The notes under the pieces are model-generated. The model saw only the letters and a program-made list of their open reading frames with translations, ran no database searches and had not been told where the DNA came from. Shown here piece after piece: positions 39,493-58,560 of a stretch of 64,000 nt of DNA (position 1 is the first letter of the stretch; each line of letters opens with the position of its first letter). The stretch covers positions 17,921 through 81,920 of IMG/VR virus record IMGVR_UViG_3300035204_002571. One strand, written 5' to 3'. The position numbers and the translations under genes are program-made. This DNA is from a virus.

Positions 39493-41009
39493 ATATATTA
39501 GATTCTTATAAAAAGAATAATTGGAAAACAAAGGGCGTAATGTTTTCTGATAAAAATATTATAATGAACTCAAAGTCTAAATTATCCTCAGAATTATCTA
39601 ATTTTAACTCTGTATCTATAAAGATAATTGGCAAAAAGATATCCGGAAATGGTCATCTAATTTTATCTATAAAAAATAAAAAGAATGAAATATTATTTTC
39701 TAAAAATGTAAATTTTACGAAAACATCTTGGTCGGAGCATTCTTTTAAATTTAAAAATAAAGTTGAAAATGGAGTATTAGAGCTGTCAAGGGGCAAGACA
39801 TCTTTCGGCAGAGTAGAGATAGGCAGAATCGTTTTAGATGATAATAGGCCAAAGGTTATGCCGAAGAAGAGAAGAGGCAATGATAGCCATTTTGATAATT
39901 ATTTAAATCTTTTAAGTCAATTTTCTTTAAAGAAGAAGGTTGCCGTAATTATTCCTTATGGAATATACGGAGGTGGAGAGGTATATTTGAAGAATATTTT
40001 TGCAAATACTAAAGATATTTTTAATATTGATTTTTTATATTTGTCAAAAAATACACTTAAGTTTGAAATGTCAAATACAAACATAAAACATAAAGACATT
40101 GGAAATTTAAATCGTCTATCTGCAACACTAGTCAACAATAGGTACGATACAGTTATTTTTTATAATAGCGCAAGAGTTTATAATGTAGTCTCAAAGCTGA
40201 AGGTGGAAGATAAAATAAATTCAAACATCATTGAAATATATCATAGTGATTTTCTTTGGCAGGATGCAGTCGCCAAGCTGAGAGAAAGGGTGGGTGTTGA
40301 CTTTATATTTAGAGTTAGTCAAAATTTAGCTGTTGATATCTTGGGCGTACCAGATGAAAGAAAGATGTTTGTTCCGGTAGGGATTGATACTAAGCTTTTT
40401 ATAAGAAAAGAAAATACAGAATTGAGAAGCAAGCTGGGGATTGATAAAAATAAAACTATATTTGGAATGGTGGCCAGATTGTCTCCTGAGAAAAATATAG
40501 AATATGCATTAAGGTTGGTTAAGGGATCAAGAGACATACATTTGCTAATTATAGGCTCAGGGCCATTATCCGGAGCGTTGCAAAGACTTGTTAAGGAAGA
40601 TAAGATAGATAATGTATCATTTTTGGGATATAAAAATAATGTTCAAGAATTTTATAATATTTTTGATGCATTTTTATTAACCTCAAAAATAGAGGGAACC
40701 CCAATATCAATTCTTGAAGCGATGTCATGCTCTTTGCCTATTTACTCAACAGATGCAGGGCAGATAAAGAATGATTTCGGTCATCTAGATAATTTTCATA
40801 TATTGAGTGGCTCCCCAGATGATGACAAAGAGTTCATAAAAAGACAAATAAATATGCCTAATTACTGTCAAAACCTAAGAGAGTATATAGTTGAAAATCA
40901 TAATATTGATATAGTCTCAAATAAGTTTTTTACAAATATTTTAAATGGTTCATTAAACTTTATAGAAAAAGATAAAGATACAGTTATAGTTTCTGGAGAA
41001 TATATATAA
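39489..41009 (+). CDS. GT4-like glycosyltransferase with extra N-terminal beta-rich (CBM-like) domain
   Basis: Start ATG 39489 (ATGA overlap). YGGGE, VPVGID, ARLSPEKN, TSKIEGTPISILEAM. ~130-aa beta-rich N-terminal extension. Confidence 0.85.
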   Translation: MNILDSYKKNNWKTKGVMFSDKNIIMNSKSKLSSELSNFNSVSIKIIGKKISGNGHLILSIKNKKNEILFSKNVNFTKTSWSEHSFKFKNKVENGVLELSRGKTSFGRVEIGRIVLDDNRPKVMPKKRRGNDSHFDNYLNLLSQFSLKKKVAVIIPYGIYGGGEVYLKNIFANTKDIFNIDFLYLSKNTLKFEMSNTNIKHKDIGNLNRLSATLVNNRYDTVIFYNSARVYNVVSKLKVEDKINSNIIEIYHSDFLWQDAVAKLRERVGVDFIFRVSQNLAVDILGVPDERKMFVPVGIDTKLFIRKENTELRSKLGIDKNKTIFGMVARLSPEKNIEYALRLVKGSRDIHLLIIGSGPLSGALQRLVKEDKIDNVSFLGYKNNVQEFYNIFDAFLLTSKIEGTPISILEAMSCSLPIYSTDAGQIKNDFGHLDNFHILSGSPDDDKEFIKRQINMPNYCQNLREYIVENHNIDIVSNKFFTNILNGSLNFIEKDKDTVIVSGEYI

Positions 41010-42130
41010 TGAGTAATGACTTTCCATCTATAAGATTTTTTGGACGGCCCCATGGGAAGGGAGGATATGGAAATGCCACGAGAAATATTTGCCTGGCCTT
41101 TTCCAGATCCGCTGTAAATACGAGGTTTGAACTAAAGGGTGACAAAAAATTTGTTGATAAAAACTTAAATAATTTTGATGGAACGCCAAAGGTTGACCTC
41201 TATCTTCATACTCCTCCGTTTTCAAGGCATAGATCAAATAATTATAAAATTGGATATTTTTATTGGGAGACAAGTATATTGCCGAAAAGTTGGGCAAAAG
41301 ATATTTGCAAGAATGTTAATGAACTCTGGGTGCCTTGCAACTTGACAAAGACGGCGTGTTTAAGAAGCGGCTTTAGTGGCCCTATAGAGATTCTTCATAC
41401 ACCATGTGATACTGATGTTTCTTTTTCCAATGTAGCGATACCATCTCCTATGACGGAAGAATTGATCTTGTCCGATAATACTTTTAAATTTTATTCTATT
41501 TTCCAATGGGGAGAGAGAAAGGGTTATACAGAGCTTTTAAAGTCTTACTATAAAGAATTTGATGGTGATGATAATGTTATTTTGATATTAAAAGTAAACC
41601 CAATAAGAAGTGATAAGAATAATATTGCAAAAATTAAATCAGATATTTTAAAGATTAAAAAGATGGTAAACAAAAAGAATTCTCCAAAAATATATCTGAT
41701 TACAGACCATCTGAACAAACAGGCTCTTATGGGCCTTCACAGGGCTTGTGACGCCTTTGTGCTCCCTCATCATGGCGAGGGCTGGGGGATGCCTATACAT
41801 GACGCTATGATGTGTGACAGTCACATTATAACTACATCATTTGGCGGCATAACAGAATTTTTAAATAATGACAATGCATTTGTAATAGATCACACTCTTG
41901 GGGCTGTAAAGCCGGTTAGCTGGAGTCCATGGTATCAGCCGTATCAGAAGTGGGCATACCCAAAGGTTCAGCACCTCAGAGTGCTTATGAGGAATCTTTA
42001 TGAAAACAAAGATAAGTACTCAAGCAAACTAGAGAGCGCAAGGGTTTTGGCAGCATCTTTGGATATAAAATCTTGCTCCGAAAGAATTGAGCAAATATTA
42101 TTACAAAAAAGATTTAAAAGGTTTTTATAA
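41009..42130 (+). CDS. Glycosyltransferase, GT-B (GT4-like), paralogue of 38407
   Basis: GGYGNA, FYWETSILP, GERKG, PHHGEGWGMPIHDAM. Confidence 0.88.
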   Translation: MSNDFPSIRFFGRPHGKGGYGNATRNICLAFSRSAVNTRFELKGDKKFVDKNLNNFDGTPKVDLYLHTPPFSRHRSNNYKIGYFYWETSILPKSWAKDICKNVNELWVPCNLTKTACLRSGFSGPIEILHTPCDTDVSFSNVAIPSPMTEELILSDNTFKFYSIFQWGERKGYTELLKSYYKEFDGDDNVILILKVNPIRSDKNNIAKIKSDILKIKKMVNKKNSPKIYLITDHLNKQALMGLHRACDAFVLPHHGEGWGMPIHDAMMCDSHIITTSFGGITEFLNNDNAFVIDHTLGAVKPVSWSPWYQPYQKWAYPKVQHLRVLMRNLYENKDKYSSKLESARVLAASLDIKSCSERIEQILLQKRFKRFL

Positions 42131-43062
42131 TGGCGAAAATATTAAAAATAGCAGACTGGCTGGTTCATGGCGGCCATCAATATGAGTTTTTTAAAACTAA
42201 TCATGTATTTTTCTGTACAAAGCCAAGCGGCTTCGCCCCAACTCCGCAAGATTTGGGTAGACCAAGAAATAAGAATGTAAATTATGTTACAGAAGCTAGG
42301 TTATCAAATGAGGCTTATGACATACTCATGGTAAGAACTGGCGTTAATCCTCATAAGTATAAAACACTTAGGTATAAAAGAGGAAATACCCCAGGGATTG
42401 CCGTTGTTCAGACGCACACTCCATCGTCATCTGTGCCGAAATGGGTAAGGTGTATGGTTTGGAATTCTAAAGATACAATGGTCAAATATATGCAAAAATT
42501 CCCGGGTAAAAAACATTTCTATATTCCACATGGATTTGATCCAAATGAGTTTGCAGATTTAAATGTAGAAAGAAACAATAGGGTTCTCAGCGCGGTAAGT
42601 GTTTTTGAAAAAAGAGGGAGCCTTTTGGGGTTTAATGAGTGGAGGTGGGTATCTAATAGGATTGGGAAGTGCGATTTGCTGGGTCACGGCAATGAAGATC
42701 TTAAAGAATCTATAGGATCATTTTCTTTGACCAAATTGGTTAGAAAATATAATAAATATGGTGTTTTTTTAAATACAACAACAAAAAGCGCCATGCCAAG
42801 AACTAGAGCTGAGGCTTTAATGTGCGGAACGCCATTAGTCACAACGAATAATTTTGGTATAAACAAGTATTTGACTCATGGCAAAAACTGCCTTTTTGCC
42901 AACACCAAAGAGGATATGCTTAAGTGTGTAAAAAAGGTCTTGGCATCAAAGAGCTTGCAGGAAGACTTGGGGGCTGCAGGTAGGGAGGCGGCAATTAAAC
43001 ATTTTCATATTAATTTGTATATTAAAAGATGGAATGAAGTATTCAAAGAGGCTCTTAGATGA
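42130..43062 (+). CDS. Glycosyltransferase, GT-B (GT4-like)
   Basis: IPHGFD, SAMPRTRAEALMCGTPLVTT, LGAAGREAAIKHF. Confidence 0.82.
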   Translation: MAKILKIADWLVHGGHQYEFFKTNHVFFCTKPSGFAPTPQDLGRPRNKNVNYVTEARLSNEAYDILMVRTGVNPHKYKTLRYKRGNTPGIAVVQTHTPSSSVPKWVRCMVWNSKDTMVKYMQKFPGKKHFYIPHGFDPNEFADLNVERNNRVLSAVSVFEKRGSLLGFNEWRWVSNRIGKCDLLGHGNEDLKESIGSFSLTKLVRKYNKYGVFLNTTTKSAMPRTRAEALMCGTPLVTTNNFGINKYLTHGKNCLFANTKEDMLKCVKKVLASKSLQEDLGAAGREAAIKHFHINLYIKRWNEVFKEALR

Positions 43063-43925
43063 AAAAGGTGCTTGCTATAACAGACTCCTATAATTGGGCC
43101 ACTTATTTTAGAGCAAAAAATTTAAAGGAGAATTTAAAAAAATATAATTTTCGAATTATATCATTTCATGATATAAAAAAAGTAAATTTTAATGATTTTG
43201 ACATTGTTTATGTTCTTAATTGGCCTATTTATGGCTATATAAGACATAAGATATCAAAAAATAGAAAATATAGACTTGTAACGGGCATATCTAGTCATAT
43301 TGGCAGGAAAAATGCAAAAGAAATGAAAACATTTTTTTCTATTTTTGATTCAATTGGGGTTTCAAACAAGTTTTTGTTTAAAGAGTTTAAAAACGCAAAT
43401 ATAAAAAATATTGTCTATACTCCGTTTGGCGTAAATCATAATATTTTCAAAAAAACAACAAATCCAAATGATTATAAGTTTATATTTGGTTGGGTCGGAA
43501 ACGATAAGAGGCCGGTTAAGAGATATGGCGAAATATGCAAAGTTTTTAAGCAATTAGGGCCAAAATATAAACTATTAACAGTCACTCAAGGGTCAGGGTT
43601 TTCGAGAGAAAAGATGGCGAAGTTTTACAATTCTATTAGCGCTATAATTTGTTATAGCGAATCAGAGGGGACTCCAAATCCTGTTTTAGAGGCGGCTATG
43701 TGTGGCAGGCCTGTTATCTCCACGCTTGTTGGAAATGTGCCTGAGCTCATGGAGGGTGTTAAAGGCTTTCGTCCTGTTAATTCTTATAAATCATTGCTGT
43801 CTGCTGTAGAGAGGTATGGGGATAGAGTTGATTTGAATAATATTGGATCACGAGTCGGCGCGGCAGCCCAAGACGACTGGACCTGGAAGATCAAGTCTAA
43901 AAACTTTGTAAGGCTTTTGGGATAA
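43059..43925 (+). CDS. Glycosyltransferase, GT-B (GT4-like)
   Basis: TPFGVN, GWVGN, SESEGTPNPVLEAAMCGRPVIST. Confidence 0.88.
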   Translation: MKKVLAITDSYNWATYFRAKNLKENLKKYNFRIISFHDIKKVNFNDFDIVYVLNWPIYGYIRHKISKNRKYRLVTGISSHIGRKNAKEMKTFFSIFDSIGVSNKFLFKEFKNANIKNIVYTPFGVNHNIFKKTTNPNDYKFIFGWVGNDKRPVKRYGEICKVFKQLGPKYKLLTVTQGSGFSREKMAKFYNSISAIICYSESEGTPNPVLEAAMCGRPVISTLVGNVPELMEGVKGFRPVNSYKSLLSAVERYGDRVDLNNIGSRVGAAAQDDWTWKIKSKNFVRLLG

Positions 43926-43927
43926 GT

Positions 43928-45013
43928 ATGAAGATTTTAATAGCATGTACCCAATACCCTTATCATGGTGGAGCTGCAACAAATTCATACGCCCTTGTGA
44001 AGGGTTTGAGAAAAAGAAAACATAGAGTATGTGGTCTATTTTTTGAAGATAGTCGGGCCAATTGTGATCCAGACAATATTGGAAAGATTATAAAATCAAG
44101 CTCTAAAATTGGAAGCTATAACCAATTGCGTAAAAAAATAATAAGAATGCTAGGCGGAAGTCCAGATATTATATTGGCTAAAAATTATGTTGCACCTATA
44201 TATTGCAGAAAGTTATTTCCGAATTCAAAAATAATTTATTTAGTATCTGGGGCTCCTATTATGATGCCTTTGTCTAAGGATAATATATCTGCGATTAGAT
44301 ATCTATCTATGGATAATTCAAAAATAAGGAAAAAGTATAGTAAAAACCTTCTTTCTCTAGAGAAGGGGGCTATAAGGGCTTGTGATGCAGTTATCTTGAA
44401 TAGCGGAATATCTAGAAAAGTTTTTTTAAAAACAAATGCTAAAAGCTTGCAAAATAGAAAAGTTTTTAAACCTTTAAATACCTCTATAGTTATAAACAGA
44501 AGAGGGAGGGGTACGAAGGCTAAAGATTTTAATAAGCGAGAGGTAGATATAGCCTTTATTTGTTCTAATTTTTCCAGAACAGTTAAGAACGCAGGATTTG
44601 CCAAGAAGCTTCTTCTTAACAAAAGGCTTGCCGGAAAAACCAAGCTTGTAGTTGGGCAAAACAGTAAAATGTTTGCAAATGTTCCAAATATTATAACTAA
44701 AGGTAAAGTGGGCAATAGTACAATTTTTAGTTACTTGAATAAAACAAAGCTAGTCATTTGTACGTCTTATTTTGATGCCTCGCCAAACATAATTAATGAA
44801 GCGCGAGCATCAGGCTGCAATGTTCTTGTGTCTAGAAACTGCGGCTGGCACAGAAGGTATGGAGCCAAAAGCGTGTGCAAAGATGTATATGGATTAAATG
44901 AGTGGATTAATAAAATTTTGTCATCATGCAAAGGGGAGATTGAATATCCAATCATACAGTCAGATAAAGATATTCTTATAGCATTGGAAAGCATGATCAA
45001 GGAGCTGCTATGA
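43928..45013 (+). CDS. Glycosyltransferase, GT-B (GT4-like)
   Basis: MKILIACTQYPYHGGAA, RTVKN, TSYFDASPNIINEARASGCNVL. Confidence 0.8.
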   Translation: MKILIACTQYPYHGGAATNSYALVKGLRKRKHRVCGLFFEDSRANCDPDNIGKIIKSSSKIGSYNQLRKKIIRMLGGSPDIILAKNYVAPIYCRKLFPNSKIIYLVSGAPIMMPLSKDNISAIRYLSMDNSKIRKKYSKNLLSLEKGAIRACDAVILNSGISRKVFLKTNAKSLQNRKVFKPLNTSIVINRRGRGTKAKDFNKREVDIAFICSNFSRTVKNAGFAKKLLLNKRLAGKTKLVVGQNSKMFANVPNIITKGKVGNSTIFSYLNKTKLVICTSYFDASPNIINEARASGCNVLVSRNCGWHRRYGAKSVCKDVYGLNEWINKILSSCKGEIEYPIIQSDKDILIALESMIKELL

Positions 45014-45075
45014 GTATAATTATAGGATGGCTGACCGGGCAAGCGGGTTTGAAAATTATGCCTGAAAGGTTGTGA
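45010..45075 (+). other. 21-codon translationally coupled mini-ORF (MSIIIGWLTGQAGLKIMPERL), possible gene remnant
   Basis: ATG overlaps the upstream stop (ATGA), with AGGAG just upstream. Fills the gap before 45082. Confidence 0.35.
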
Positions 45076-45081
45076 GAAACT

Positions 45082-46146
45082 ATGTTTGGTACTAAATTTT
45101 GGTATAAAAAGAAAAAAATATTATTTGTAGTAGATGTTCAAGGATGGGCATATGACGATAGAGCAAAAACATGGAAATCTTTGCTTAAAGATGAGTTTGA
45201 AATTGATATACTTAGATTGTCAGAGTTTCCAGTTGGAAGTTATAGTTCAGAGTTTTCAATTATAAATAGAAAAATTATAAATGCTGCCAATGAAGGGGTG
45301 CCCTTAAATTGTTCAAGAATTGTTACAGATCCTAGTTCTGTTAATTATTCTTTTTCAGATTTAGGTAAAATAAAAAAATTAAAACCAGTATTTGATCATA
45401 AAAAATATGATGGGATTGTTTTTTTCTATCATAAGGCGATTGCAGACAGAAGGCTTTTGGCAACTCCCTTTCCAATGAATAAGGTAGCGGTATGTATTAA
45501 TAATGAAAAGTGGAAAGAAGAAGGTGCAGAGTATTTTGCAAAAACTTTTTATTCAGAAGTAAAGATTTTGGTTGGATGTAATAAATATATAGTTGATTCT
45601 TTTTCTGGGCTTCATCCTAACGTAATGCGCGCTTCCCAATGTGTAGATAGTTCTGTCTTTTTTAAAGATAAAAATCTTAATACTAAGCCTAAAAGGAGAT
45701 TTACAGTTGGGTGGTCTGGCAACCATAGTAATCCGCTCAAAAGAGTTGAGTTAATAAAAAAGGCTTGTAACAAAGCAGGTGTAACATTATCTATAAAAAA
45801 AGATCTTAGTAGGAAGGATCTTAATGTTTGGTATAACAGTATTGATATAGTAATTTGTGCTAGTGAGTCTGAAGGAGGCCCTATGTTGTTGCTGGAGGCT
45901 GGCGCTGTTGGGGTGCCGGCCATTACAGCTAATGTGGGGCTCGCAAGAGAGATGGTGAGTCATGAAAAAAATGGTTTAATCTTGAAAGAAGGCAGCGTCA
46001 AAAACATAAAAGAACTTATTTTAAAATTAAAAAACAAACCAGATCTCGTAAAAGCTTATGGAAGAAGAGTTCATCAAGAGATTTTAAAAAATTGGACATA
46101 TGAGGCAAGGTTGCATGAGATCAGGGGGGTGTTGAGGGCGCTATGA
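45082..46146 (+). CDS. Glycosyltransferase, GT-B (GT4-like)
   Basis: ILFVVDVQGWAY, VGWSGN, ASESEGGPMLLLEAGAVGVPAIT, HEKNGLI. Confidence 0.88.
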   Translation: MFGTKFWYKKKKILFVVDVQGWAYDDRAKTWKSLLKDEFEIDILRLSEFPVGSYSSEFSIINRKIINAANEGVPLNCSRIVTDPSSVNYSFSDLGKIKKLKPVFDHKKYDGIVFFYHKAIADRRLLATPFPMNKVAVCINNEKWKEEGAEYFAKTFYSEVKILVGCNKYIVDSFSGLHPNVMRASQCVDSSVFFKDKNLNTKPKRRFTVGWSGNHSNPLKRVELIKKACNKAGVTLSIKKDLSRKDLNVWYNSIDIVICASESEGGPMLLLEAGAVGVPAITANVGLAREMVSHEKNGLILKEGSVKNIKELILKLKNKPDLVKAYGRRVHQEILKNWTYEARLHEIRGVLRAL

Positions 46147-47270
46147 AAATTAAAAAGAAAATAATAATTTATCCAAATCCAAGAAATAAAATAAAAATTA
46201 ATACACATCATGGCGTATGTGGCTTTTTTTTAAATAAGTATCTTTTAAAATATTATGATATTATACCCACAGAGGCATTAAGGTGGATTTCTAAGTCTGG
46301 AGGGGTAGGCCCGGGAACCAAGCAGTCAAATTTGTTGAATTTTGCACAAAAGGCTCATGAGCTAGGTGCGTCCCACGTTATATCTACGCAGCAGCGGGGT
46401 TTTACAAAAATATTTAAAAAACTATCTTCTAGTGATATAGGAAAAATAAGAAAAAGAAATAAAGGTGTAAGTTTTTGCTCAGTTCATGATCATTCTGGTC
46501 ATCGCAAGTTTGCTGAAGACGTACTGTTTGTGGCCCTACCCTTTGATGAGAAAAGGAGAAGGCAAATGCTTAAGGAGTCTGAGACAAAGCTGATTCATAC
46601 AGGATGGTGTGCAGATCATGCCATATTTAATGACAACAAGAATAAGCATGGTGATTTAAATATTGTTTTAGACCATGCTGCTTTGCAAGGTTTTAGAGCA
46701 GATGCAACAAGCTTATATGTTAAGCAGATTAAAAAATTAAAAAAGAATTATCCTAAAAAAGAGATAAACTTATGCAGAATAAAAGGTGGATTTGAGTTTT
46801 TTGACTTCAAGAGAGATGGCTGGACGCATGATCTAAAAAATAGATGGTGGAAATCAAAATATGATGATGGCTGGAAAAACGATAGTAGGTGTCATATCTT
46901 TCAAATAGCAGAATGTTTAAATGATTCGCATATTTTCTGTACTACACATGTTGAGAGTTGCGGGCTTACAGGAATAGAAGCTTTGATGTCAGGGTGCAAA
47001 GTATATATTCCAAGGGGCAAAGATACTTTTAATATGTGGGGAAGTGGTGGAAAAATGGGCAGCTATGAAGGCCCATTTCTAAAGAGCGCTTTATTGAAAC
47101 CATATATGGATTATAGTATTTTTAATTTTAATAATCCACAACAATGCTATAAGCTGTTTAAGCGTGATATTGATATATATAAAGTAAAATACAACAGAAA
47201 GCTGCTTATAGAGAAGAATTCTTGGAAGGCGGCTGCAAAGCAAATATATTTGGGGCTAGAATCAAAATGA
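46143..47270 (+). CDS. Putative glycosyltransferase, divergent GT-B
   Basis: THVESCGLTGIEALMSGC (EX7E) and terminal NSWKAAAKQI. Confidence 0.7.
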   Translation: MKIKKKIIIYPNPRNKIKINTHHGVCGFFLNKYLLKYYDIIPTEALRWISKSGGVGPGTKQSNLLNFAQKAHELGASHVISTQQRGFTKIFKKLSSSDIGKIRKRNKGVSFCSVHDHSGHRKFAEDVLFVALPFDEKRRRQMLKESETKLIHTGWCADHAIFNDNKNKHGDLNIVLDHAALQGFRADATSLYVKQIKKLKKNYPKKEINLCRIKGGFEFFDFKRDGWTHDLKNRWWKSKYDDGWKNDSRCHIFQIAECLNDSHIFCTTHVESCGLTGIEALMSGCKVYIPRGKDTFNMWGSGGKMGSYEGPFLKSALLKPYMDYSIFNFNNPQQCYKLFKRDIDIYKVKYNRKLLIEKNSWKAAAKQIYLGLESK

Positions 47271-48217
47271 AGATATTGTACTTGGATGATAAAAAGCATG
47301 GTTATAATTCGAATATACATCTTGATTTTTTTTCTTGGATGCAAAAAAAACATGAAATCATTGGAGTCGGCACATATTTGGGCGATAAGCTGAAGAGGTC
47401 TTATTGTCCAAGTGAAAAAAATATAAAAAAGCAAATAAATAGAATAATAAAAAAAGAACAACCCGATTTTGTTATAACTTATAACGCCGGAAGCAATAAT
47501 GCGTTTAGGCTTAAATGGTTAAACGAGGTTTTGCCGCAAATCGATTTGCCAAAATTTCATATTTCAACAGATTATTGTAGAAATAGATTTGAGCCTAATC
47601 AGGCTAAGTGGTTTGAGAAGATGGGATTTGCAGCTTCTTTGTTTAGACATAAGGTTTCTTTGAAACATCCATTAAATATTGATAAATATTGGTTTCCTTT
47701 TTCAATTAATACAGAAGAATATCAGGCTAATATTAATAAGAATATTTCAAATAAGGTAAAAAAAGTCGCATTTGTTGGAGCTTATAAAAAGTCTAAGGGA
47801 CTTTATAAGAAGAGGGTAGCGGCTATAGACTTCTTGCGGCAAAATAATTTTTTAAATGAATCTGTAGACAGAATTATTGGTTTGGACTTTATTCAATTTT
47901 GGAGCGAAAATATGTTTGGCTTAACCTGTAGTGGCGTTTGTAATTATTTTGTAGCCAAACATATACAGATACCTGCAGCATATAGTATGCTTGTTTGCGA
48001 TGGAACAGCCCCAGGTATTGAGACATTTCCAGAAGACACATATATAACTTATAATGCAGATAATATTAAAGAGCTTAAGCCAAAAATTCTTTATCATATA
48101 AATAATCCTAAAATTACTAAGAAAAAAATAGATATATTACATAAACATGTCTTAAGAAATCATAGTCATTCTCAAAGAGAAAGGGAGTTAGTTAAAATTG
48201 TCAAAAAATACTTGTAA
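47267..48217 (+). CDS. Putative glycosyltransferase (CgeB/Glyco_trans_1_2-like GT-B)
   Basis: Start ATG 47267 (ATGA overlap). WFPFSIN, VAFVGAY...YKKR, FVAKHIQIPA, HVLRNHSHSQR. Confidence 0.7.
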   Translation: MKILYLDDKKHGYNSNIHLDFFSWMQKKHEIIGVGTYLGDKLKRSYCPSEKNIKKQINRIIKKEQPDFVITYNAGSNNAFRLKWLNEVLPQIDLPKFHISTDYCRNRFEPNQAKWFEKMGFAASLFRHKVSLKHPLNIDKYWFPFSINTEEYQANINKNISNKVKKVAFVGAYKKSKGLYKKRVAAIDFLRQNNFLNESVDRIIGLDFIQFWSENMFGLTCSGVCNYFVAKHIQIPAAYSMLVCDGTAPGIETFPEDTYITYNADNIKELKPKILYHINNPKITKKKIDILHKHVLRNHSHSQRERELVKIVKKYL

Positions 48218-48224
48218 AGAATTT

Positions 48225-48857
48225 ATGATGAAAGCAGAGGAGGCGTCAAGACTTAAGCTGATAGAGCCAAATATGTTCCTAAAAGGAAGTGTAGCTATAG
48301 TGGGCTCTGGGGGCAGGCTGAGATACACCAAATATGGAGAGAAGATAGATGGATATGACCATGTGGTTAGGTTTAATCGAGCGCCAACGATAGGTTATGA
48401 AGATATGGTTGGAGGGAAAAGAACTCTAACGGTCGCTAATCGTCACGTATTTGGAAACAAACAGCTTAAAAGAAAGTCGGGCTGGGAACAAGAGGATCCC
48501 TATTTCATTAGGAATCTCAAAAATACGAATATTTTATATTTTGCAAGACCGCATAGGGTCTGGGACATCAGAGAGGAGAATGTGAGCCCAACAAGTCGAG
48601 TCTTTAAAGTTTCTAATTATAGCAAAATGGTCAAGCTTATAGAGTATCCTATAAAAAATCCTTCTGTAGGTTATGGGTTTGTTATGTTGTGTGTATGCTC
48701 TGGAATTAAGCCTCATCTGTATGGGTTTGATATAGATACAGATAGTAGGGATCATTATTGGGAAGAAAGAGATGAAGTTTTTACTCACAATATTTCTTAT
48801 GAACAGGAAAGGCTTGTTGAGCTACATGATGCAAAGAAGATCAAAATAAACAGTTAG
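48225..48857 (+). CDS. GT29 sialyltransferase-family protein 1 (soluble)
   Basis: Sialylmotif L (VAIVGSGG...GEKIDGYDHVVRFNRAPTIGYEDMVGGKRT), S (PSVG...PHLYGFD), III (HYWE) and VS (HNISYE). Confidence 0.85.
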   Translation: MMKAEEASRLKLIEPNMFLKGSVAIVGSGGRLRYTKYGEKIDGYDHVVRFNRAPTIGYEDMVGGKRTLTVANRHVFGNKQLKRKSGWEQEDPYFIRNLKNTNILYFARPHRVWDIREENVSPTSRVFKVSNYSKMVKLIEYPIKNPSVGYGFVMLCVCSGIKPHLYGFDIDTDSRDHYWEERDEVFTHNISYEQERLVELHDAKKIKINS

Positions 48858-48871
48858 ATTAAATAAATATG

Positions 48872-48892
48872 TTAATAATGAATATAATGATG
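48872..48892 (+). promoter_or_regulatory. Putative promoter motif TTAATAAT-N3-TATAATGATG (copy 1)
   Basis: Intergenic, contains TATAAT, 18/21 identical to 62679-62699. Confidence 0.55.
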
Positions 48893-48930
48893 AATCCAGG
48901 CAGTTAGCTAAAAGCAAGAAAAGGATATTA

Positions 48931-49635
48931 ATGAGTAGAATATTTAAAAACAAGACTACCAAGCTTAATGGCGTTATTAATCTTACTAATAAGAATGCGA
49001 CCGAATTATCAGGAAGAACTAGAAAGTATACTCTTCGGGAGAATGGCCGGCCTCACCCAAAGGTGGTCCGACAGTACGTTAAGATTATAGATATTTTAAA
49101 AATTAAGAATGAAGTAATATTAGATTTTGGGTGCTGTATGGGTCATGCTTCTTTTGTTTTTAAAGAAAGAACCCCTAAAGCTACTTACATAGGTGCAGAC
49201 TTAAATGCGGCAAACTTACTTGCGGGAAAGTCAGAGTATAATCCTAAATTTTTATATAAGGTAAAGTATACCGAGCCATGTTTAGATGGGATTAAGGATG
49301 ATTCAATAGATCTGATTATTGTTAGCAGGCTAACTGATTGGACGGAAGTTGATAATTTTTTTCCTGAATTTAATAGAGTGTTAAAAAAGGGTGGGCATTT
49401 ATTTGTTCGGTCAAACGGAGGAGGCTTGCGCGGAAAAGGTGGTCATGTGGTTTTAAAGCTAAAAGTTTATGAGTATCTTAAAAATGATTACAAATCATAC
49501 AGAACACCCGGGAGAGATCTAGAGGGGTTTGCACTGGCCTTGTGGGGCGATAAAAATAGATATAAAAATTTAAAAAAAGAGTTTACGAAAAAAGAATGGA
49601 AGAAAACTTTTAATGGAATTTTTATAAAAAAATGA
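48931..49635 (+). CDS. Class I SAM-dependent methyltransferase
   Basis: ILDFGCCMG (motif I), YIGADLN, DSIDLII, RVLKKGGHL. Confidence 0.85.
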   Translation: MSRIFKNKTTKLNGVINLTNKNATELSGRTRKYTLRENGRPHPKVVRQYVKIIDILKIKNEVILDFGCCMGHASFVFKERTPKATYIGADLNAANLLAGKSEYNPKFLYKVKYTEPCLDGIKDDSIDLIIVSRLTDWTEVDNFFPEFNRVLKKGGHLFVRSNGGGLRGKGGHVVLKLKVYEYLKNDYKSYRTPGRDLEGFALALWGDKNRYKNLKKEFTKKEWKKTFNGIFIKK

Positions 49636-50246
49636 AAAAAATTATTTGCATTTCTCCAGATTTATTTTTGTCTAAAAGTTTGGCCATTGTAGGCTCCAGC
49701 GGTTCTCTTGGGAGTGGAAAGTATGGAAAAAAGATAGATAGATTTGATGACGTTATAAGGTTTAATAGGGCTCCAACGGAGGGTTTTGAAGAAATGGTTG
49801 GATCCAAAAGAACCTTAACTGTTGCTAATTCACATGTTTTTGCAAACATTCAGCTTAGAAAGAAGTCAGGCTGGAAACAGAAACATGTAAGCTTTATTGA
49901 AGACCTAAGAGAAACAAGAGTTCTTCTTTTTGCTCCGGCCAATATGCGGTGGAAAAACAGGTATAAATATATTCATGCATCAGTAGTTCCCTACTCTGTT
50001 GATTACAAGGCTATGTGCAAGCTTGTACCGGTCCCAAAAAGGCAGCCGACTGCTGGCTTTGGGTTTATAAATCTTTGTGTTAAATCAGGTCTTAAGCCAC
50101 ATCTGTTCGGCTTTGATGTAGAGCCAAGACAGAGAGATCATTATTGGGAAGAAAGAGATAATGATACTTCTTGGCATAGCGTTGGTTATGAGAAAGAAGT
50201 GCTGAAAAAAATGCATAAAAAAGGTATGATCGTATTACATTCTTAG
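49632..50246 (+). CDS. GT29 sialyltransferase-family protein 2 (soluble)
   Basis: Motif L (LAIVGSSG...GKKIDRFDDVIRFNRAPTEGFEEMVGSKRT), S (PTAG...PHLFGFD), III (HYWE) and VS (HSVGYE). Confidence 0.85.
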   Translation: MKKIICISPDLFLSKSLAIVGSSGSLGSGKYGKKIDRFDDVIRFNRAPTEGFEEMVGSKRTLTVANSHVFANIQLRKKSGWKQKHVSFIEDLRETRVLLFAPANMRWKNRYKYIHASVVPYSVDYKAMCKLVPVPKRQPTAGFGFINLCVKSGLKPHLFGFDVEPRQRDHYWEERDNDTSWHSVGYEKEVLKKMHKKGMIVLHS

Positions 50247-50324: not shown

Positions 50325-51521
50325 ATGTTAATCTTTATAGATATTGATGAAACAATTTGCAATACGCCAGAATCAAGAGATTACTCGCTAGCGCAGCCTA
50401 TTAAAAAGAATATAGAAATAGCCAATAAGCTATATGACGAAGGGAATACCATTGTTTATTGGACAGCAAGAGGCAGCGTGACAGGTATAGACTGGACTGC
50501 TGTTACGCAAGCTCAGCTCAATAATTGGGGAGTAAGACATCATGAGCTAAGGCTTGGAAAGCCTCCTTATGATTTAATGATTTGTGATAAAACCATAAGC
50601 AGCCTAAATATGAAAGGCAATCTAGAGAGAGTTATGAATACACATTCTTCTGTTACGCCGATTCCGCCGGATTTTGATAAAAATGAAAATTTATTTCTAG
50701 AGTCAACAAATACGTATGTTGACTTTCTAATTACAGAAGGCGTTCAGACCGTCATGACTACTGCTGGCACATCTCAGTTTGGGCTGATGTCCTTAGACGA
50801 AATACACAGTTTTAATGCGGTGGTGGCCAAATCTAATGCAAGCAAAAAGATAATAGGTATGCCGCCACTATCTCAAGTGCAGGCCAAAGAGTTTGCCAGA
50901 TTTGCTCAAAAGAAATATTTAAATGAGTCATGTTTTTTGATGGCGCTTTATCCAGATAGATGGTATGACAATGAGACTATTGTTTCTTATTTTTCAGAAA
51001 TTGGTGGAGAGTGTGAGAACCCTCTGTATATTCATTGCATGAAGATGAGGGCAGGAAAAGGAGGGTCTTGGGATTTTACGGGAGACTCTCTTAGGCCATT
51101 AAGTGATAATGGAGTTGTTGTAGGCATTAAGGAGGAGCATTCATCTCTTAAGGATTCATACGACTTTGTATCGTCATTAGACTCAAGTTTAGATGTGATT
51201 GTTGCTGGCGGAAGCATGCGAAGGCATCAGTTTCTTAGATCTGCTGGAGCAAACTCTTTCTTGTCTGGGCTGGGGAATCTTTTTCCAAAAATTGAACAAC
51301 AATACATGGGCGGAGCAAATGTTGATGAAGCTTTATGTCTAGAGACTATGCTTTTTGATGTTTTTATGAAAAATGGATGGCATAAATCATTAAGAGAAGC
51401 CTTGAGGCAACGTGAGTTGACGTGCTTGTTTGACAGAAAGCCTTGGCCTAAGGTGACCGAAGAAGAATCAGATGAAATAAAAAACGTGCTATCTAAAATA
51501 GAAAAGGAGATAAAAGCATGA
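50325..51521 (+). CDS. Fusion: small HAD phosphatase (capsule-locus type) + DHDPS/N-acetylneuraminate lyase-family aldolase
   Basis: N-terminal FIDIDETI, YWTARG, KPPYDLMICDK. C-terminal VTPIPPDFD, TTAGTSQF, VVGIKEE (Schiff-base Lys), GANSFLSGLGNLFP. Confidence 0.75.
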   Translation: MLIFIDIDETICNTPESRDYSLAQPIKKNIEIANKLYDEGNTIVYWTARGSVTGIDWTAVTQAQLNNWGVRHHELRLGKPPYDLMICDKTISSLNMKGNLERVMNTHSSVTPIPPDFDKNENLFLESTNTYVDFLITEGVQTVMTTAGTSQFGLMSLDEIHSFNAVVAKSNASKKIIGMPPLSQVQAKEFARFAQKKYLNESCFLMALYPDRWYDNETIVSYFSEIGGECENPLYIHCMKMRAGKGGSWDFTGDSLRPLSDNGVVVGIKEEHSSLKDSYDFVSSLDSSLDVIVAGGSMRRHQFLRSAGANSFLSGLGNLFPKIEQQYMGGANVDEALCLETMLFDVFMKNGWHKSLREALRQRELTCLFDRKPWPKVTEEESDEIKNVLSKIEKEIKA

Positions 51522-52303
51522 GTGATAAAGTATGGATCCTAGGGCCTTGTAGCCTTGAAAATGAAGATCTTTTTATGGAGACTTTCTCAGAAATTTCTAA
51601 AATAATGCAGGGAAGAGACTGGTATATGAAGGCTAGCTTCGATAAGGCTAACAGAACCAGCCTTCATGGCGGCCGGGGCCCTGGCCTTGAATATTGCATG
51701 GAGGTCTGGAAGCAAATAAAGGCTGACAATCCAGAGGTTAAGTTCTTAACGGATGTGCATGAAACCTGTCAAGTAGAGGGGCTGTCAGAGGTTATTGATT
51801 GTATTCAGATTCCGGCATTTCTATGTCGCCAAACAGATCTCATAGTAGAGTGCGCAAGGCACTTTGACAAGATGAACATCAAGAAGGGACAGTGGCTCGG
51901 ACCAAATAATCTTAATAAGTCAGTAGACAAAGTAAGGGAGATCAACCCAAACTGTGAGGCTTGGATTTGTGATCGAGGAACTAATTTTGGATATCATGAT
52001 TTATTTGTTAACTTTGGAATTGTCGATGAGCTTAAGAAGGCGTTTGATAAAGTGATTCTTGATGCCACCCATTCGATCCAGAGGTCAAGAGCGGTATATG
52101 GTTCACAGGGCGACAGAAGGCTGGCAGAAAGATATCTAGTTGGAGCAGATGTTTTTGGATATGATGGGGTATTTGCGGAAGTTCACCCCAATCCTCCAGA
52201 GGCAGTGTCTGATGCTGATTGTCAGATTTACCTCAGCGATCTAGAGAGGATGGTTAGGATGGCCGACGCTGTTGGTGAGGCGTCTAAAGGTTTGCATGAG
52301 TAG
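51518..52303 (+). CDS. kdsA: 3-deoxy-D-manno-octulosonate 8-phosphate (KDO8P) synthase
   Basis: GPC, KASFDKANRTS..GRGPG, QIPAFLCRQTDL, NIKKGQW, RGTNFGY, DATHSIQ, EVHPNP..AVSDA. AAGGAG RBS. Confidence 0.92.
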   Translation: MSDKVWILGPCSLENEDLFMETFSEISKIMQGRDWYMKASFDKANRTSLHGGRGPGLEYCMEVWKQIKADNPEVKFLTDVHETCQVEGLSEVIDCIQIPAFLCRQTDLIVECARHFDKMNIKKGQWLGPNNLNKSVDKVREINPNCEAWICDRGTNFGYHDLFVNFGIVDELKKAFDKVILDATHSIQRSRAVYGSQGDRRLAERYLVGADVFGYDGVFAEVHPNPPEAVSDADCQIYLSDLERMVRMADAVGEASKGLHE

Positions 52304-52721
52304 AGCTTCTTTGCACTTGCACGTTGGGTTTCATAAAACTGGAACAACATGGCTGCAGCGATTAGTTTTTCCAGAGCTAAAGGGGGTTAATTACATTGGA
52401 AAGCGCTTTAGTGCAAAAGGCGCAAAAAATAATTTTAACCACCTGTATAATGATAGTTACGCCGGGTCTGCTAATAAAGGTAGGGATATTATGGAGCTTA
52501 TTTTTATAGATATTTATAAAGCATGTTTGGGAGGCAAAGGCTTGTTGGCAAAAGAGTATCAGGCAGATCCCGTGCATTTGAGCAAAGAGGTGTCAGAAAA
52601 AGTGTGTGAATTTTTGACAAAAAAGATTAAGCGAAAATTATCAAAAAAGATTACAGAAGAAGATGTTTTAAAAAAATATTTTATTTTTAATAACAAATTT
52701 CAATGTTACCTTAGGAGTTAG
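52296..52721 (+). CDS. Short sulfotransferase-like ORF, apparently truncated or chimeric
   Basis: N-terminal PAPS-binding loop LHVGFHKTGTTWLQ, but only ~141 aa and no 3'-PB motif. C-terminal half resembles an SGNH DxxH end. Confidence 0.5.
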   Translation: MSRASLHLHVGFHKTGTTWLQRLVFPELKGVNYIGKRFSAKGAKNNFNHLYNDSYAGSANKGRDIMELIFIDIYKACLGGKGLLAKEYQADPVHLSKEVSEKVCEFLTKKIKRKLSKKITEEDVLKKYFIFNNKFQCYLRS

Positions 52722-52723
52722 GG

Positions 52724-53413
52724 GTGTTTTTATCGGACACAAAAATGGTAAATGAAGCTCCCGAGCATTATGTCAAGATAGTTAAAAAGGCTTGTTTGGC
52801 AAACAAGATTGTTTTTATACATATTCCAAAAAATGCTGGAACAAGTATAAAAAAAGCTTTAAGGCTTAATAAGTCGCCATGTCATTTGTTTGCAAGTGAA
52901 ATAAAACATGCAATAGGCCCAAAGGAGTTTGGGAAGAACGCAAGAGTTTGCGTTATTAGGAATCCGTGGGACAGACTTGTCTCCATCTATTGCCAGCAGC
53001 GCACTAGAAGGAAAACTCTTTTTTTTAAAGGCATTAAAGGAAGTGGCGGCTTGGTTCCTGGGTTTGAAGATGGGGTTCCGACATTTGAAGATTTTATTTT
53101 AAAATATTTTCCAAAAACCTGGTGGCAAGGTAGGTCTTTATCTCAAACGAAATATATTCAACATAGCAATAAGGATAAGATTATTGTTAATAAGATTTTA
53201 AGGTATGAGAAATTAGATGAAGAATGGGAAAAGCTTTCCAAAGAGCTTTGTTTAAACGTTAGCTCTCTAAATAGAATTAATAAATCAAAAGATAAAAAAA
53301 ATAACTATAGAGAGTTTTACAAAACTAGCAAAAAAGGTTTTAATCATAAATTGATAGACAAAGCATCTGAGTTGGTAGAGATTGATGCGAAGAATTTTGG
53401 GTATAAGTTTTGA
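52724..53413 (+). CDS. Sulfotransferase (Sulfotransfer_2-like)
   Basis: FIHIPKNAGTSI (5'-PSB), IRNPWDRLVSIY (3'-PB), RYEKLDEEW. Confidence 0.88.
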   Translation: MFLSDTKMVNEAPEHYVKIVKKACLANKIVFIHIPKNAGTSIKKALRLNKSPCHLFASEIKHAIGPKEFGKNARVCVIRNPWDRLVSIYCQQRTRRKTLFFKGIKGSGGLVPGFEDGVPTFEDFILKYFPKTWWQGRSLSQTKYIQHSNKDKIIVNKILRYEKLDEEWEKLSKELCLNVSSLNRINKSKDKKNNYREFYKTSKKGFNHKLIDKASELVEIDAKNFGYKF

Positions 53414-54162
53414 TGACAAAAAGATTAGCAATTGTACCGGCCAGAGGTGGATCCAAGAGGTTGCCTGGTAAAAATTTTAAAAGATTAAACGGCAAGCCTT
53501 TAATATATCACACAATAGATAAAGCTATTAAGCATTTTGATCATGTTATATTTACAACAGATGATGACAAAATGATCAAAAAGGCTAAAAGAAAATATTT
53601 TTTCAAAAAGAATATAGAAGTTTTAAAAAGACCAGATCACTTATCTTCTGACACTTCAAAGGTAATTGATACAGTTTGTTATTATTTTGATCAAGAAAAA
53701 TATTTAGAATATGATCAAATATGGCTTCTGCTGCCAACGTGTCCGCTAAGAGGTGATGAGGATATCAGGAGTGCTCAAGAACAACTAACGGGTGAGTACG
53801 ATTCAGTTTTGAGCATAACAGATTACGGATTCCCGCCAACCCTGGGCCTCAACAGGGATGCGAATGGACTTATAACAGATTTTCATGAAAGTAGGCCTTG
53901 GGCTAACAATAATACCAGATCTCAAGATCATCCGGATGTTTTCCGTCCAAATGGAGCGATTTATGGTTCATGGAGAGTCTCGTTCGAGGTTAATCGAAAT
54001 TTTTATTTCGGAAAAGTTCGTGGCAACTATATGCCAAGAGATCGATCTATAGATATAGATACAGAATTAGATTTTATAATTGCAGAGTCTGTTATGAGAA
54101 ATAACGAATACAAAAGAACAAAAAGTATATGGATGTGGATGGGCAGCATAGATGGAAGCTAA
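53413..54162 (+). CDS. Acylneuraminate/ulosonate cytidylyltransferase (NeuA-type CMP synthetase)
   Basis: IVPARGGSKRLPGKN, LLPTCPLR, TRSQD, PNGAIY, SIDIDTELDF. Confidence 0.9.
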   Translation: MTKRLAIVPARGGSKRLPGKNFKRLNGKPLIYHTIDKAIKHFDHVIFTTDDDKMIKKAKRKYFFKKNIEVLKRPDHLSSDTSKVIDTVCYYFDQEKYLEYDQIWLLLPTCPLRGDEDIRSAQEQLTGEYDSVLSITDYGFPPTLGLNRDANGLITDFHESRPWANNNTRSQDHPDVFRPNGAIYGSWRVSFEVNRNFYFGKVRGNYMPRDRSIDIDTELDFIIAESVMRNNEYKRTKSIWMWMGSIDGS

Positions 54163-56963: not shown

Positions 56964-57907
56964 CACCTTTAGTTGCGCCACTCTGCCCAGGTTCTGATAT
57001 TTTAGTAAAAGATTTTAATTTAGATTATTTTATATCTAAAATAAATAATAAAGAATATTTTTCATTTTGGAAAATTAATCATGGGCACTGGGAGCAGCTA
57101 TATTCATATTTTGTTATGTTGAATGGACAGCATTATACAAAAAATGAAAATTCTAATAAAAATAATATTGCTCCAAAACAAATATCAGATAGTGATCTTA
57201 TGGGATATTGCAAATGGGCAGTAAAAAGATCACACTCCCCTTTGTTTGGGGCTTCATGGGAAGAGTTGTATAAAGTAATTAGTTTAATTCATAGTGTTTA
57301 TCTTAATGGCCACCCATCCGAAGGTGATGATTATATTTTCGCATTATCAGATGGATCCCATAGAGATTATACATCTATAAATGATAATTTATATTCTAAA
57401 TTCAAAAAATATTATGTACATAATATACATGATGTTATTAGAGCATCTATTTATAATCAGAATGGATTGATATTATGTAAAAATAACCTCGAATATGAAG
57501 AGCATTTGAGATTTGTGCCTGCTCGTGGAAACATTTTTAAAAAAGCCTATAGAGGTGGCATTTTGACAAATCTTTTTGACGCCATACAGGGAATGAGGAT
57601 TCTATATGTGGGGCCTGGGAAAATTGATAATGAAAAGTATCCTCATATAGACGCAATTAAAATTCCTTCTTCAAGAGCAATTATGAAGCGAGATAATACT
57701 CTTTCTGAAATTAAAGCATGGTGCGAGATGAGAGAACATGAATCAATAGACCAAATTATATTTTTTTGTTGCGGATATACGCAGGTATATTTAATACATA
57801 CGTTACACAAGATGTATTCTAATACTTTTTTAATAGATGTAGGGCAATCATTAGATCCTTTGATAAAAAAGAATCACACAACTAAGCCATGGGAGGTGAA
57901 GCGATGA
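56960..57907 (+). CDS. Hypothetical protein, possibly GT-D fold (DUF1792-like) glycosyltransferase
   Basis: FSFWKINHG near the N-terminus and IIFFCCG...FLIDVGQSLDP at the C-terminus loosely resemble the GT-D pattern (S..RFGDGE...IDIG). Divergent. Confidence 0.35.
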   Translation: MTPLVAPLCPGSDILVKDFNLDYFISKINNKEYFSFWKINHGHWEQLYSYFVMLNGQHYTKNENSNKNNIAPKQISDSDLMGYCKWAVKRSHSPLFGASWEELYKVISLIHSVYLNGHPSEGDDYIFALSDGSHRDYTSINDNLYSKFKKYYVHNIHDVIRASIYNQNGLILCKNNLEYEEHLRFVPARGNIFKKAYRGGILTNLFDAIQGMRILYVGPGKIDNEKYPHIDAIKIPSSRAIMKRDNTLSEIKAWCEMREHESIDQIIFFCCGYTQVYLIHTLHKMYSNTFLIDVGQSLDPLIKKNHTTKPWEVKR

Positions 57908-58560
57908 CGAGTAAGGCAGTGGGCGTTTATAGAGTAACTGAAGAATTTGAAGAAGAGCTTTGCAGATACACAGGGGCTTCTTATGCTGTTGCTGTTGATA
58001 ATTGTAGCAACGCTTTATTTCTTGCGTTAAAATACGAAAAGGTTGGAGGAACTGAGATAAGCATACCCTGCAGAACATATCCATCTGTACCTTGTGAAAT
58101 TATACATGCTGGGGCAAAGGTTGCTTTTGAAAAAGTGGAGGGCACTACAATTTCTGGAGCATATCAGCTTAAACCCTCATGTGTTTGGGATTCGGCATTA
58201 AGATTTACTCACAATATGTATATGCCGGGAACCCATATGTGTGTTTCTTTTACGGGTCCATTTAAACACTTTAGACTAAGCAAGGGAGGGGCGATATTGA
58301 CTGATAATAAAGATGCATATGAATGGTTCAAAAGAGCTAGATGCTCTGGAAGAAGGCCATGCCCATATCATGAAGATGATTTAGATATGCTTGGATGGAA
58401 CTTTTATATGATGCCTGAGCTGGCAGCACGAGGCCTTCTTCTTATTAGGCAGTTTTATACTCAGATAGGCAATGAGCCCATACATCATGAGGATGCAACT
58501 ATGTCATATCCAGATTTATCACAATTTAAAATATATAAACAAACAAAGGAAACTTTATGA
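57904..58560 (+). CDS. DegT/DnrJ/EryC1/StrS-family PLP sugar aminotransferase, short form (~218 aa)
   Basis: FEEELCRYTGASYAVAVDNCSNALFLAL, WDSA, SFTGPFKH..GGAILTD, GWNFYM. Start ATG 57904 (ATGA overlap). Confidence 0.85.
   Translation: MTSKAVGVYRVTEEFEEELCRYTGASYAVAVDNCSNALFLALKYEKVGGTEISIPCRTYPSVPCEIIHAGAKVAFEKVEGTTISGAYQLKPSCVWDSALRFTHNMYMPGTHMCVSFTGPFKHFRLSKGGAILTDNKDAYEWFKRARCSGRRPCPYHEDDLDMLGWNFYMMPELAARGLLLIRQFYTQIGNEPIHHEDATMSYPDLSQFKIYKQTKETL

Follow-up and report, generated by a model that had tools for sequence, protein, structure and literature searches.

Can the enzyme family that makes all animal sialoglycans, glycosyltransferase family 29 (GT29), work for a bacteriophage, and if so, which sugar would it transfer and to what? 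The question is raised by IMG/VR virus record IMGVR_UViG_3300035204_002571, an 81.9-kb contig of which we analyzed bases 17921-81920, a stretch of 64,000 nucleotides that we refer to as the window. A first-pass annotation, made from the letters alone, had picked out two genes in it, here called GT29-A and GT29-B, as soluble, minimal, eukaryote-type GT29 paralogues that arose by local duplication and flank a methyltransferase. Both open reading frames (ORFs) are real and lie where that annotation placed them, and the gene between the two intact copies does encode a methyltransferase. The three genes are tightly packed on the plus strand of 48225-50246:

48225-48857, plus strand: GT29-A, a 210-amino-acid (aa) soluble minimal GT29 glycosyltransferase
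48931-49635, plus strand: class I S-adenosylmethionine (SAM) methyltransferase (PF08241, E 3e-10; also PF13649 and PF13847)
49632-50246, plus strand: GT29-B, a 204-aa soluble minimal GT29 glycosyltransferase

GT29-A most likely starts at the ATG at 48225, with the stop codon of the upstream gene 8 nt before it; an alternative TTG start at 48198 would add nine residues. The methyltransferase stop and the GT29-B start overlap (ATGA), and these two genes are translationally coupled.

GT29-A and GT29-B are members of CAZy family GT29 by hidden Markov model, by motifs and by fold, the last judged on a model of copy B. Against PF00777, which has a gathering cut-off of 23 bits, GT29-A scored 76.3 bits and GT29-B 90.3 bits (profile positions 58-271), and the outcome was the same when the whole contig was scanned. 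No other Pfam family, GT42 included, matched at E <= 0.1, except for a sub-threshold TubZ_C_3 match in GT29-B. A family profile built from 17 members matched pig ST3Gal-I (2wml) over its full length (E 5.5e-22) and also matched ST6Gal1, ST8SiaIII and ST6GalNAc2. In the profile alignment all four sialylmotifs (L, S, III and VS) that the annotation had read from the translations are present, in order and in register with ST3Gal-I; the motif III H-Y-W-E and the motif VS H-x4-E line up with their counterparts in the animal enzymes. H170 and Y171 do not vary across the 17 family members, and H182 is at least 90% conserved among them; GT29-A is full length and retains all family-invariant residues, both histidines among them. 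GT29-B, the only copy modelled, gave an AlphaFold2 model of high confidence (predicted local distance difference test 90.8, predicted template modelling score 0.89) with the GT-A variant 2 fold of solved sialyltransferases. The model superposed on ST3Gal-I 2wml with a VIA Z of 17.0 (root-mean-square deviation 2.8 Å over 180 residues, spanning chain residues 83-341); Z was 16.7 for ST6GalNAc2, 15.6 for ST8SiaIII and only about 10 for the GT42 enzymes CstI and CstII. Foldseek against 5bo9 gave E 2.5e-11. Inverting transfer from an ulosonic acid activated with cytidine monophosphate (a CMP-ulosonate) is the likely reaction, a prediction supported by the linkage of these genes to a CMP-synthetase and to KdsA or NeuB.

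The annotation had also remarked on the missing Golgi anchor and motif-L cysteines, and both features hold up. Neither protein has a transmembrane segment (maximum 19-residue Kyte-Doolittle mean 1.18 in A and 1.48 in B), both are basic (isoelectric point, pI, 9.3 and 9.8), and motif L starts about 15 residues after the N-terminus. Residues other than cysteine face both the motif-L and the motif-S cysteines of ST3Gal-I, so the conserved disulfide is lacking, and a family-specific cysteine, C149, is conserved instead. Given the lack of a hydrophobic segment and the basic pI, both proteins are soluble, stripped-down catalytic cores, without the anchor, the stem or the region before ST3Gal-I residue 83.

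How widespread are such cores? An exhaustive search with the family profile returned 8732 matches at E <= 0.001. At E <= 1e-30 these comprised 169 cluster representatives (50% identity), and the best 150 are nearly all 195-225 aa long; longer homologues include green-algal proteins (Pyramimonas, Mesostigma) at 70-77 bits. Members of the branch occur on 20 viral contigs of IMG/VR, including two complete genomes (459 and 442 kb), and relatives lie on 17 marine metagenome contigs. A pattern-limited scan of one representative genome for each of 185,579 prokaryote species found cellular relatives in four: two metagenome-assembled genomes of Opitutales, one of Flavobacteriaceae and one single-amplified genome of Pelagibacteraceae. 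Profile searches of about 300 genomes per order, in the orders of Pelagibacteraceae and Opitutales, found relatives in 3 of 301 in each. Megablast of the region against cultured and deposited phages gave no match, and tblastn gave a single unannotated record, LR756508 (33% identity); PHROGs and NCBIfam hold no family or model for these proteins. GT29-A and GT29-B thus belong to a large branch of GT29 proteins of about 205 aa that is found mostly on marine phage contigs and sporadically in cells. The label "eukaryote-type" therefore does not fit, both because of this populous, mostly phage-borne branch and because bacterial GT29s without an anchor and without the motif-L and motif-S cysteines were described in 2018 (Petit et al. 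2018, Sci Rep 8:2946, PMC5811610).

Judged by its gene content, the contig is a fragment of a marine jumbo myophage, with a CheckV completeness of 19%. Genes for a tail sheath, tail fibres and a virion protein lie upstream of the window, and the window itself encodes a sheath initiator, a baseplate J protein of 1107 aa and several giant proteins (1533-3315 aa). From end to end, the baseplate protein shares 38-39% identity with its counterparts in both complete relatives (459 and 442 kb); its best cultured match, in Bacillus phage G, covers the N-terminal quarter only. The sequence is present in public seawater metagenomes; Logan contigs of 7148 bp each from two runs, which may be the source sample, are identical to 46000-50087 and cover an ORF of unknown function, GT29-A, the methyltransferase and GT29-B. 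No RNA data were among the public runs listed for the sequence.

Which sugar would these enzymes use? Rather than to sialic acid, the genes directly downstream point to a donor of the CMP-activated 3-deoxy-D-manno-octulosonic acid (CMP-Kdo) type:

50325-51521, plus strand: HAD-type phosphatase domain fused to a divergent DHDPS/NAL-family aldolase-like domain (PF00701, E 2.8e-8)
51518-52303, plus strand: KdsA-type 3-deoxy-8-phosphooctulonate synthase (PF00793, 135 bits)
53410-54162, plus strand: CMP-ulosonate synthetase (cytidylyltransferase), NeuA/PseF-like (PF02348, 65.5 bits)

The synthase passes the NCBIfam equivalog model for KdsA, NF003543 (247.4 bits, cut-off 242), and scores 235 against TIGR01362, under that model's cut-off of 314, so it is a divergent KdsA. 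No NeuB was found in the window's contig. The best NCBIfam model for the CMP-synthetase was PseF (111 bits, below its cut-off). The HAD-like N-terminal domain, of about 100 aa and DxD-type, is 47-67% conserved in relatives and matched no curated HAD model at E <= 0.001. With KdsA as the partner, a Kdo-type octulosonate donor is likelier than sialic acid, and we infer that the donor is most likely CMP-Kdo or a close derivative. A tie between GT29 domains and this sugar has been drawn before: candidates for plant rhamnogalacturonan-II synthesis link GT29 domains to Kdo transfer (PMC11288761, PMC5811610), and in the GT29-GT107 protein of Escherichia coli K6 both families are said to move ulosonic acids from CMP donors (PMC13171606).

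We searched about 40 related loci with the window's proteins by tblastn and found a markedly conserved gene neighborhood. After the mini-GT29, at a distance of 0.5-6 kb (8.6 kb at locus L010), comes a gene for KdsA or one for NeuB, and never both. KdsA is the partner at 10 distinct loci besides the window, and NeuB at about 17:

KdsA partner: L005, L013, L017, L019/20, L021, L023, L029, L039/40, L045
NeuB partner: L004, L006-12, L014-16, L027, L032, L034, L036, L038, L041, L044, L046

The NeuB of L004 (L004:10649-11521), for example, scored 243 bits against its Pfam model. Most loci have a CMP-synthetase within 8 kb of the GT29, often with DHDPS-like and HAD genes too, and the HAD-aldolase ORF lies 3′ of the GT29 in most of them, as one or two ORFs. 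Searches of whole records bore out this exclusivity: G003, G001 and the window's contig have KdsA and no NeuB, and G005 has NeuB and no KdsA. The mini-GT29 thus supplies the transferase of an exchangeable CMP-ulosonate module, which here is of the eight-carbon (Kdo) type.

Several side observations concern these neighborhoods. The HAD and DHDPS/NAL-like domains form one ORF in the window and in L029 and two separate stretches in several relatives, such as L005, L019 and L023; of the cassette's unexplained partners, the DHDPS-like enzyme is the most constant. Among metagenome proteins, mini-GT29s also occur in fusions: with a SAM methyltransferase (P0029, 409 aa), with an FdtA/WxcM-like domain in front (P0188, 460 aa) and with an HMGL-like aldolase/carboxyltransferase (P0106, 527 aa). 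On the marine viral contig of L010, an exostosin/GT47-like gene (L010:9168-9974; PF03016, E 3e-12) lies directly upstream of the GT29, and an ATP-grasp gene follows the cassette. GT47 is another family best known from eukaryotes.

Why are there two copies? GT29-A and GT29-B are 49% identical over 203 aa (BLASTP, E 8e-68). In a tree of 77 sequences, the pair of GT29-A and metagenome protein P0163 is sister to (P0003, (P0002, (GT29-B, P0001))), and this six-member clade has a Shimodaira-Hasegawa-like approximate likelihood ratio support of 99%; a tree of 34 locus-derived proteins agrees. From this clade, the two are true paralogues born of a duplication inside this phage lineage. Each copy is nearer to proteins from elsewhere than to the other copy: GT29-A to P0163, its closest relative (58%), and GT29-B to P0001-P0003 (65% for P0003). 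P0163 was found on 13 contigs, and it probably shares a contig with P0003, since the longest contig recorded for each is 27,692 bp; a scan of viral contigs with P0163 gave no match. The first-pass idea of a local duplication is thus right as to paralogy, and the two copies are too diverged for a recent event: nucleotide identity is 59%, and among 100 identical residues 57 use the same codon where codon usage alone predicts 48.4, which puts synonymous sites near saturation. On these comparisons, the duplication is lineage-specific but old.

An identical 24-nt stretch shared by the two genes had been pointed out, and the window does hold exactly two copies of it, where shuffled sequences predict none:

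48750-48773, plus strand: 24-mer copy 1, coding DHYWEERD (sialylmotif III) in GT29-A
50136-50159, plus strand: 24-mer copy 2, coding DHYWEERD (sialylmotif III) in GT29-B

With the residues held fixed, codon usage gives such an identity a probability of about 0.03. We rejected gene conversion or a recent duplication as its source, given motif III, the codon bias and the near-saturation of synonymous sites; as motif III and codon bias explain the stretch, it is uninformative on recent duplication. Between the copies, identity is 69% in motif L and 65% in motif S and falls to 28% over residues 100-139 between them, a pattern that would fit a difference in acceptor or linkage specificity.

The paralogues sit in a co-directional sugar island of about 26 kb, which starts 40 nt after the last structural gene and runs on the same strand as the baseplate and fibre genes. 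Its first part is a glycosyltransferase array:

38407-48217, plus strand: seven GT4/GT-B glycosyltransferases and two weakly GT-B-like ORFs

The island also holds sulfotransferases, an acetyltransferase, a second methyltransferase, a nucleotide-sugar dehydrogenase and genes for a sugar of the deoxythymidine diphosphate-4-amino-6-deoxyhexose type. None of the 30 ORFs at 38.4-64 kb, the GT4 array included, has a transmembrane segment. A scan for promoters and terminators over 37.5-55 kb did not rise above shuffled expectation and yielded no operon boundaries. In the window at 38407-64000 the glycosyltransferases and sulfotransferases are strongly basic, with pIs of 9.0-10.1, and acidic pIs of 5.1-6.4 are found for KdsA, the HAD-aldolase and some of the enzymes that modify sugars. 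A DegT/aminotransferase-like ORF at 57889-58560 (223 aa) covers profile positions 14-97 of 360; because a 79% identical short form occurs in L010, this is a conserved short form and not a local truncation.

We propose, at a probability of roughly 0.6, that GT29-A and GT29-B are cytoplasmic inverting GT29s that draw on a CMP-Kdo-type donor from the phage's own cassette, serve two positions or acceptors, and help to build an acidic glycan carried by a phage protein. The KdsA-type synthase, the HAD phosphatase and the NeuA-like CMP-synthetase would make a CMP-activated 3-deoxy-2-ulosonic acid, with arabinose-5-phosphate supplied by a Gram-negative host. GT29-A and GT29-B would then transfer the Kdo-type sugar, with inversion, to two different positions or acceptors of a glycan that the upstream GT4 array would build and the methyl-, sulfo- and acetyltransferases of the island would decorate. 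A phage protein would most likely carry this glycan, for example one of the giant acidic baseplate or fibre proteins whose genes lie just upstream. The coupled methyltransferase would probably O-methylate the ulosonate or its acceptor, and we propose these targets less firmly than the rest. The methyltransferase fused to a GT29 in P0029 has no BLASTP similarity to the one in the window, so the fusion is only analogous, and it is the association that recurs.

A phage protein is favored as the carrier by the lack of membrane proteins, by the position of the island after the baseplate and fibre genes and by the layout of the complete 459-kb genome G001, where the baseplate J gene (305-308 kb) lies about 27 kb upstream of the GT29 (335.5 kb) and KdsA (338 kb). 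In the complete 442-kb genome G002, the GT29 is about 81 kb away from the baseplate gene. Precedents exist, as giant viruses encode cytoplasmic glycosylation of their virions, including fibrils (PMC9614988), and capsids of mycobacteriophages are glycosylated (Freeman et al. 2023, as cited in PMC12619734). The phage probably caps a self-made glycan with acidic sugars. We can picture, as a tentative and on balance unlikely elaboration, an entirely cytoplasmic, membrane-free assembly line that places a sulfated, methylated glycan on the baseplate or fibre proteins, with Kdo-type caps added by the two GT29s at two positions.

A number of observations weigh against this proposal. The canonical Kdo pathway consists of KdsD, KdsA, KdsC and KdsB. 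The 82-kb contig, which covers no more than about 19% of the genome, gave no match for KdsD, the arabinose-5-phosphate isomerase (PF01380, SIS domain); the CMP-synthetase scores 29-42 bits against KdsB models, far below their cut-offs, and is not KdsB-like; and the DHDPS-like enzyme, a conserved partner, has no role in the canonical route. With a synthetase that is not of the KdsB type and an additional DHDPS-like enzyme, the sugar may be a Kdo derivative or a different ulosonate. The link between GT29 and donor is also loose. Near-identical GT29s are paired with KdsA in L021 and with NeuB in L006 (both at about 10001-12300), and on the GT29 tree the kind of partner switches four times or more. 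Therefore the GT29 sequence does not fix the donor; we rejected the idea that GT29 phylogeny predicts the donor partner, and the enzymes may be promiscuous for donor. The complete genome G002 has a GT29 (244.8-245.3 kb) and neither KdsA nor NeuB, so there a CMP-sugar from the host would be needed. As to the acceptor, gene position and the absence of membrane proteins are the sole grounds for placing the glycan on the virion, and host lipid carriers and exporters could serve instead. Finally, GT29-A is dispensable in close relatives.

If host carriers and exporters were used, the island, including both GT29s, could remodel the host envelope, adding the ulosonate to lipopolysaccharide (LPS) core, O-antigen or capsule intermediates on host lipid carriers; host machinery would export the product, and superinfection would be blocked or receptor display altered ('lock-out'). 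We treat this as a serious rival, albeit an unlikely one. LPS and capsule genes in marine viral genomes, KdsA and NeuA among them, have been read in this way (PMC5332604), bacterial GT29s have been proposed to act on LPS (PMC5811610), and a few genomes of Pelagibacterales, Opitutales and Flavobacteriaceae contain relatives. However, the 26-kb island encodes no priming phosphoglycosyltransferase, flippase, polymerase, ligase, transporter or any membrane protein, and it still adjoins tail genes in a relative whose baseplate protein is only 39% identical.

The dispensability of GT29-A comes from the closest sister contigs, L029, L030 and L033, where GT29-B is 94%, the HAD-aldolase 98% and KdsA 97% identical to the window's. 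Their gene order is the unknown ORF, the methyltransferase and GT29-B; GT29-A is absent, a clean one-gene difference. Their methyltransferase, which likewise precedes GT29-B, is 64-67% identical to that of the window, and the genes upstream of GT29-B as a whole are only 47-67% identical; as the comparison passes through the methyltransferase into GT29-B, identity rises from about 40% to about 95%. In other seawater runs, too, contigs cover GT29-B to KdsA and not GT29-A. The absence of copy A together with the identity gradient indicates that the island is a mosaic in which copy A is accessory. In comparison with L029, the mosaic boundary lies at 49000-49750 of the window, and GT29-B and the genes downstream are 92-98% identical (sulfotransferase 92.5%). 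A further one-gene indel of the island is seen at 52272-52721, between KdsA and the next sulfotransferase, where the window has a 149-aa ORF with a sulfotransferase-like N-terminus and no counterpart in L029 (the flanking genes there are about 20 bp apart).

It could then be that only GT29-B works, and that GT29-A is a redundant accessory copy heading for loss or a non-catalytic partner. The presence/absence pattern speaks for this, as does the finding of a single GT29 within 10 kb on either side in related loci, except in L046 (LR756508), which has two matching places. We nevertheless consider it improbable, as GT29-A is full length with all of its invariant residues, and as the occurrence of its relative P0163 on 13 contigs points to long-term purifying selection. 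Least probable is the minor rival that the GT29s hypermodify phage DNA by adding a Kdo-type sugar to hydroxymethylated bases: phage glycosyltransferases do place Kdo-like and other sugars on 5-hydroxymethylcytosine, but those enzymes have the GT-B fold and are not GT29s (bioRxiv 10.1101/2023.12.21.572611), the 64-kb window holds structural and sugar genes only, with no hydroxymethylase, TET-like or DNA-metabolism gene, and at least nine glycosyltransferases plus sulfo- and methyltransferases far exceed what the mono- to trisaccharide DNA glycans of that preprint would require.

GT29-A and GT29-B add to a known enzyme family, in a phage setting for which we found no publication. Our literature search turned up no description of phage GT29s, the sole mention being one count in a CAZyme list of a coral virome, and no paper that ties them to CMP-ulosonate cassettes. 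What emerges is that marine phages commonly carry small, soluble GT29s without the disulfide, and that these are tied to exchangeable KdsA or NeuB cassettes; the prokaryotic roots of the family are debated (Petit et al. 2018, PMC5811610). To this the locus adds a pair of paralogues that has been retained, a methyltransferase coupled to it and a presence/absence polymorphism, found in nature, of one of the two copies. Should the enzymes prove active, they would provide the first biochemical function for the prokaryotic and phage GT29 branch, point to an unstudied acidic glycan on ocean phage particles or infected cells, and offer soluble, disulfide-free catalysts, expressible in E. coli, for glycosylation with Kdo or sugars of the sialic acid type. 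A glycan of this kind on the virion would give bacteriophages their first example of a particle glycan with ulosonic acid ('sialylation-like').

Known systems share parts of this arrangement. The giant viruses CroV, Fadolivirus and Mimivirus likewise encode a Kdo-type pathway, soluble glycosyltransferases and particle glycans, but they infect eukaryotic hosts and use a KdsB-type CMP-Kdo synthetase, and the article describing them has no occurrence of GT29 (PMC9614988). The GT42 enzymes CstI and CstII of Campylobacter have a related GT-A variant fold and a CMP-sugar donor; the phage model fits them clearly less well than GT29 structures, and sialylmotifs are poorly conserved in GT42 (PMC5811610). 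The plant and green-algal GT29-like proteins with a putative role in transferring Kdo or 3-deoxy-D-lyxo-heptulosaric acid (Dha) to rhamnogalacturonan-II similarly depend on a CMP-Kdo supply (PMC11288761; PMC3522684), although they are membrane-anchored Golgi enzymes of 500 or more aa, and their activity is putative. In the GT29-GT107 protein of the E. coli K6 capsule, a prokaryotic GT29 domain is likewise tied to CMP-Kdo and a Kdo polymer (PMC13171606); that protein is a fusion to GT107 in a transporter-dependent capsule locus with export genes, whereas the phage GT29s stand alone, with no export genes.

The animal Golgi sialyltransferases (ST3Gal-I, 2wml/2wnb; human ST6GalNAc2, ST8SiaIII and ST6Gal1) share the fold, with Z of 15-17 at 22-27% identity. 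Unlike them, the phage proteins have only about 205 aa, aligned to ST3Gal-I residues 83-341, and have no cytoplasmic tail, anchor, stem or disulfide, nor the opening part of the catalytic domain. They are basic proteins of the cytoplasm, and their donor is probably not N-acetylneuraminic acid. The bacterial GT29s of Petit et al. 2018, set against their published description only, are alike in having the four sialylmotifs and neither an anchor nor the L and S cysteines (PMC5811610). They too come from marine organisms and have a putative function, they fall at the base of the GT29 tree, and the article has no occurrence of 'phage' or 'virus'. Those genes are chromosomal and mostly from alpha-proteobacteria; here, by contrast, the GT29 belongs to a jumbo phage, is duplicated and sits in a CMP-ulosonate cassette.

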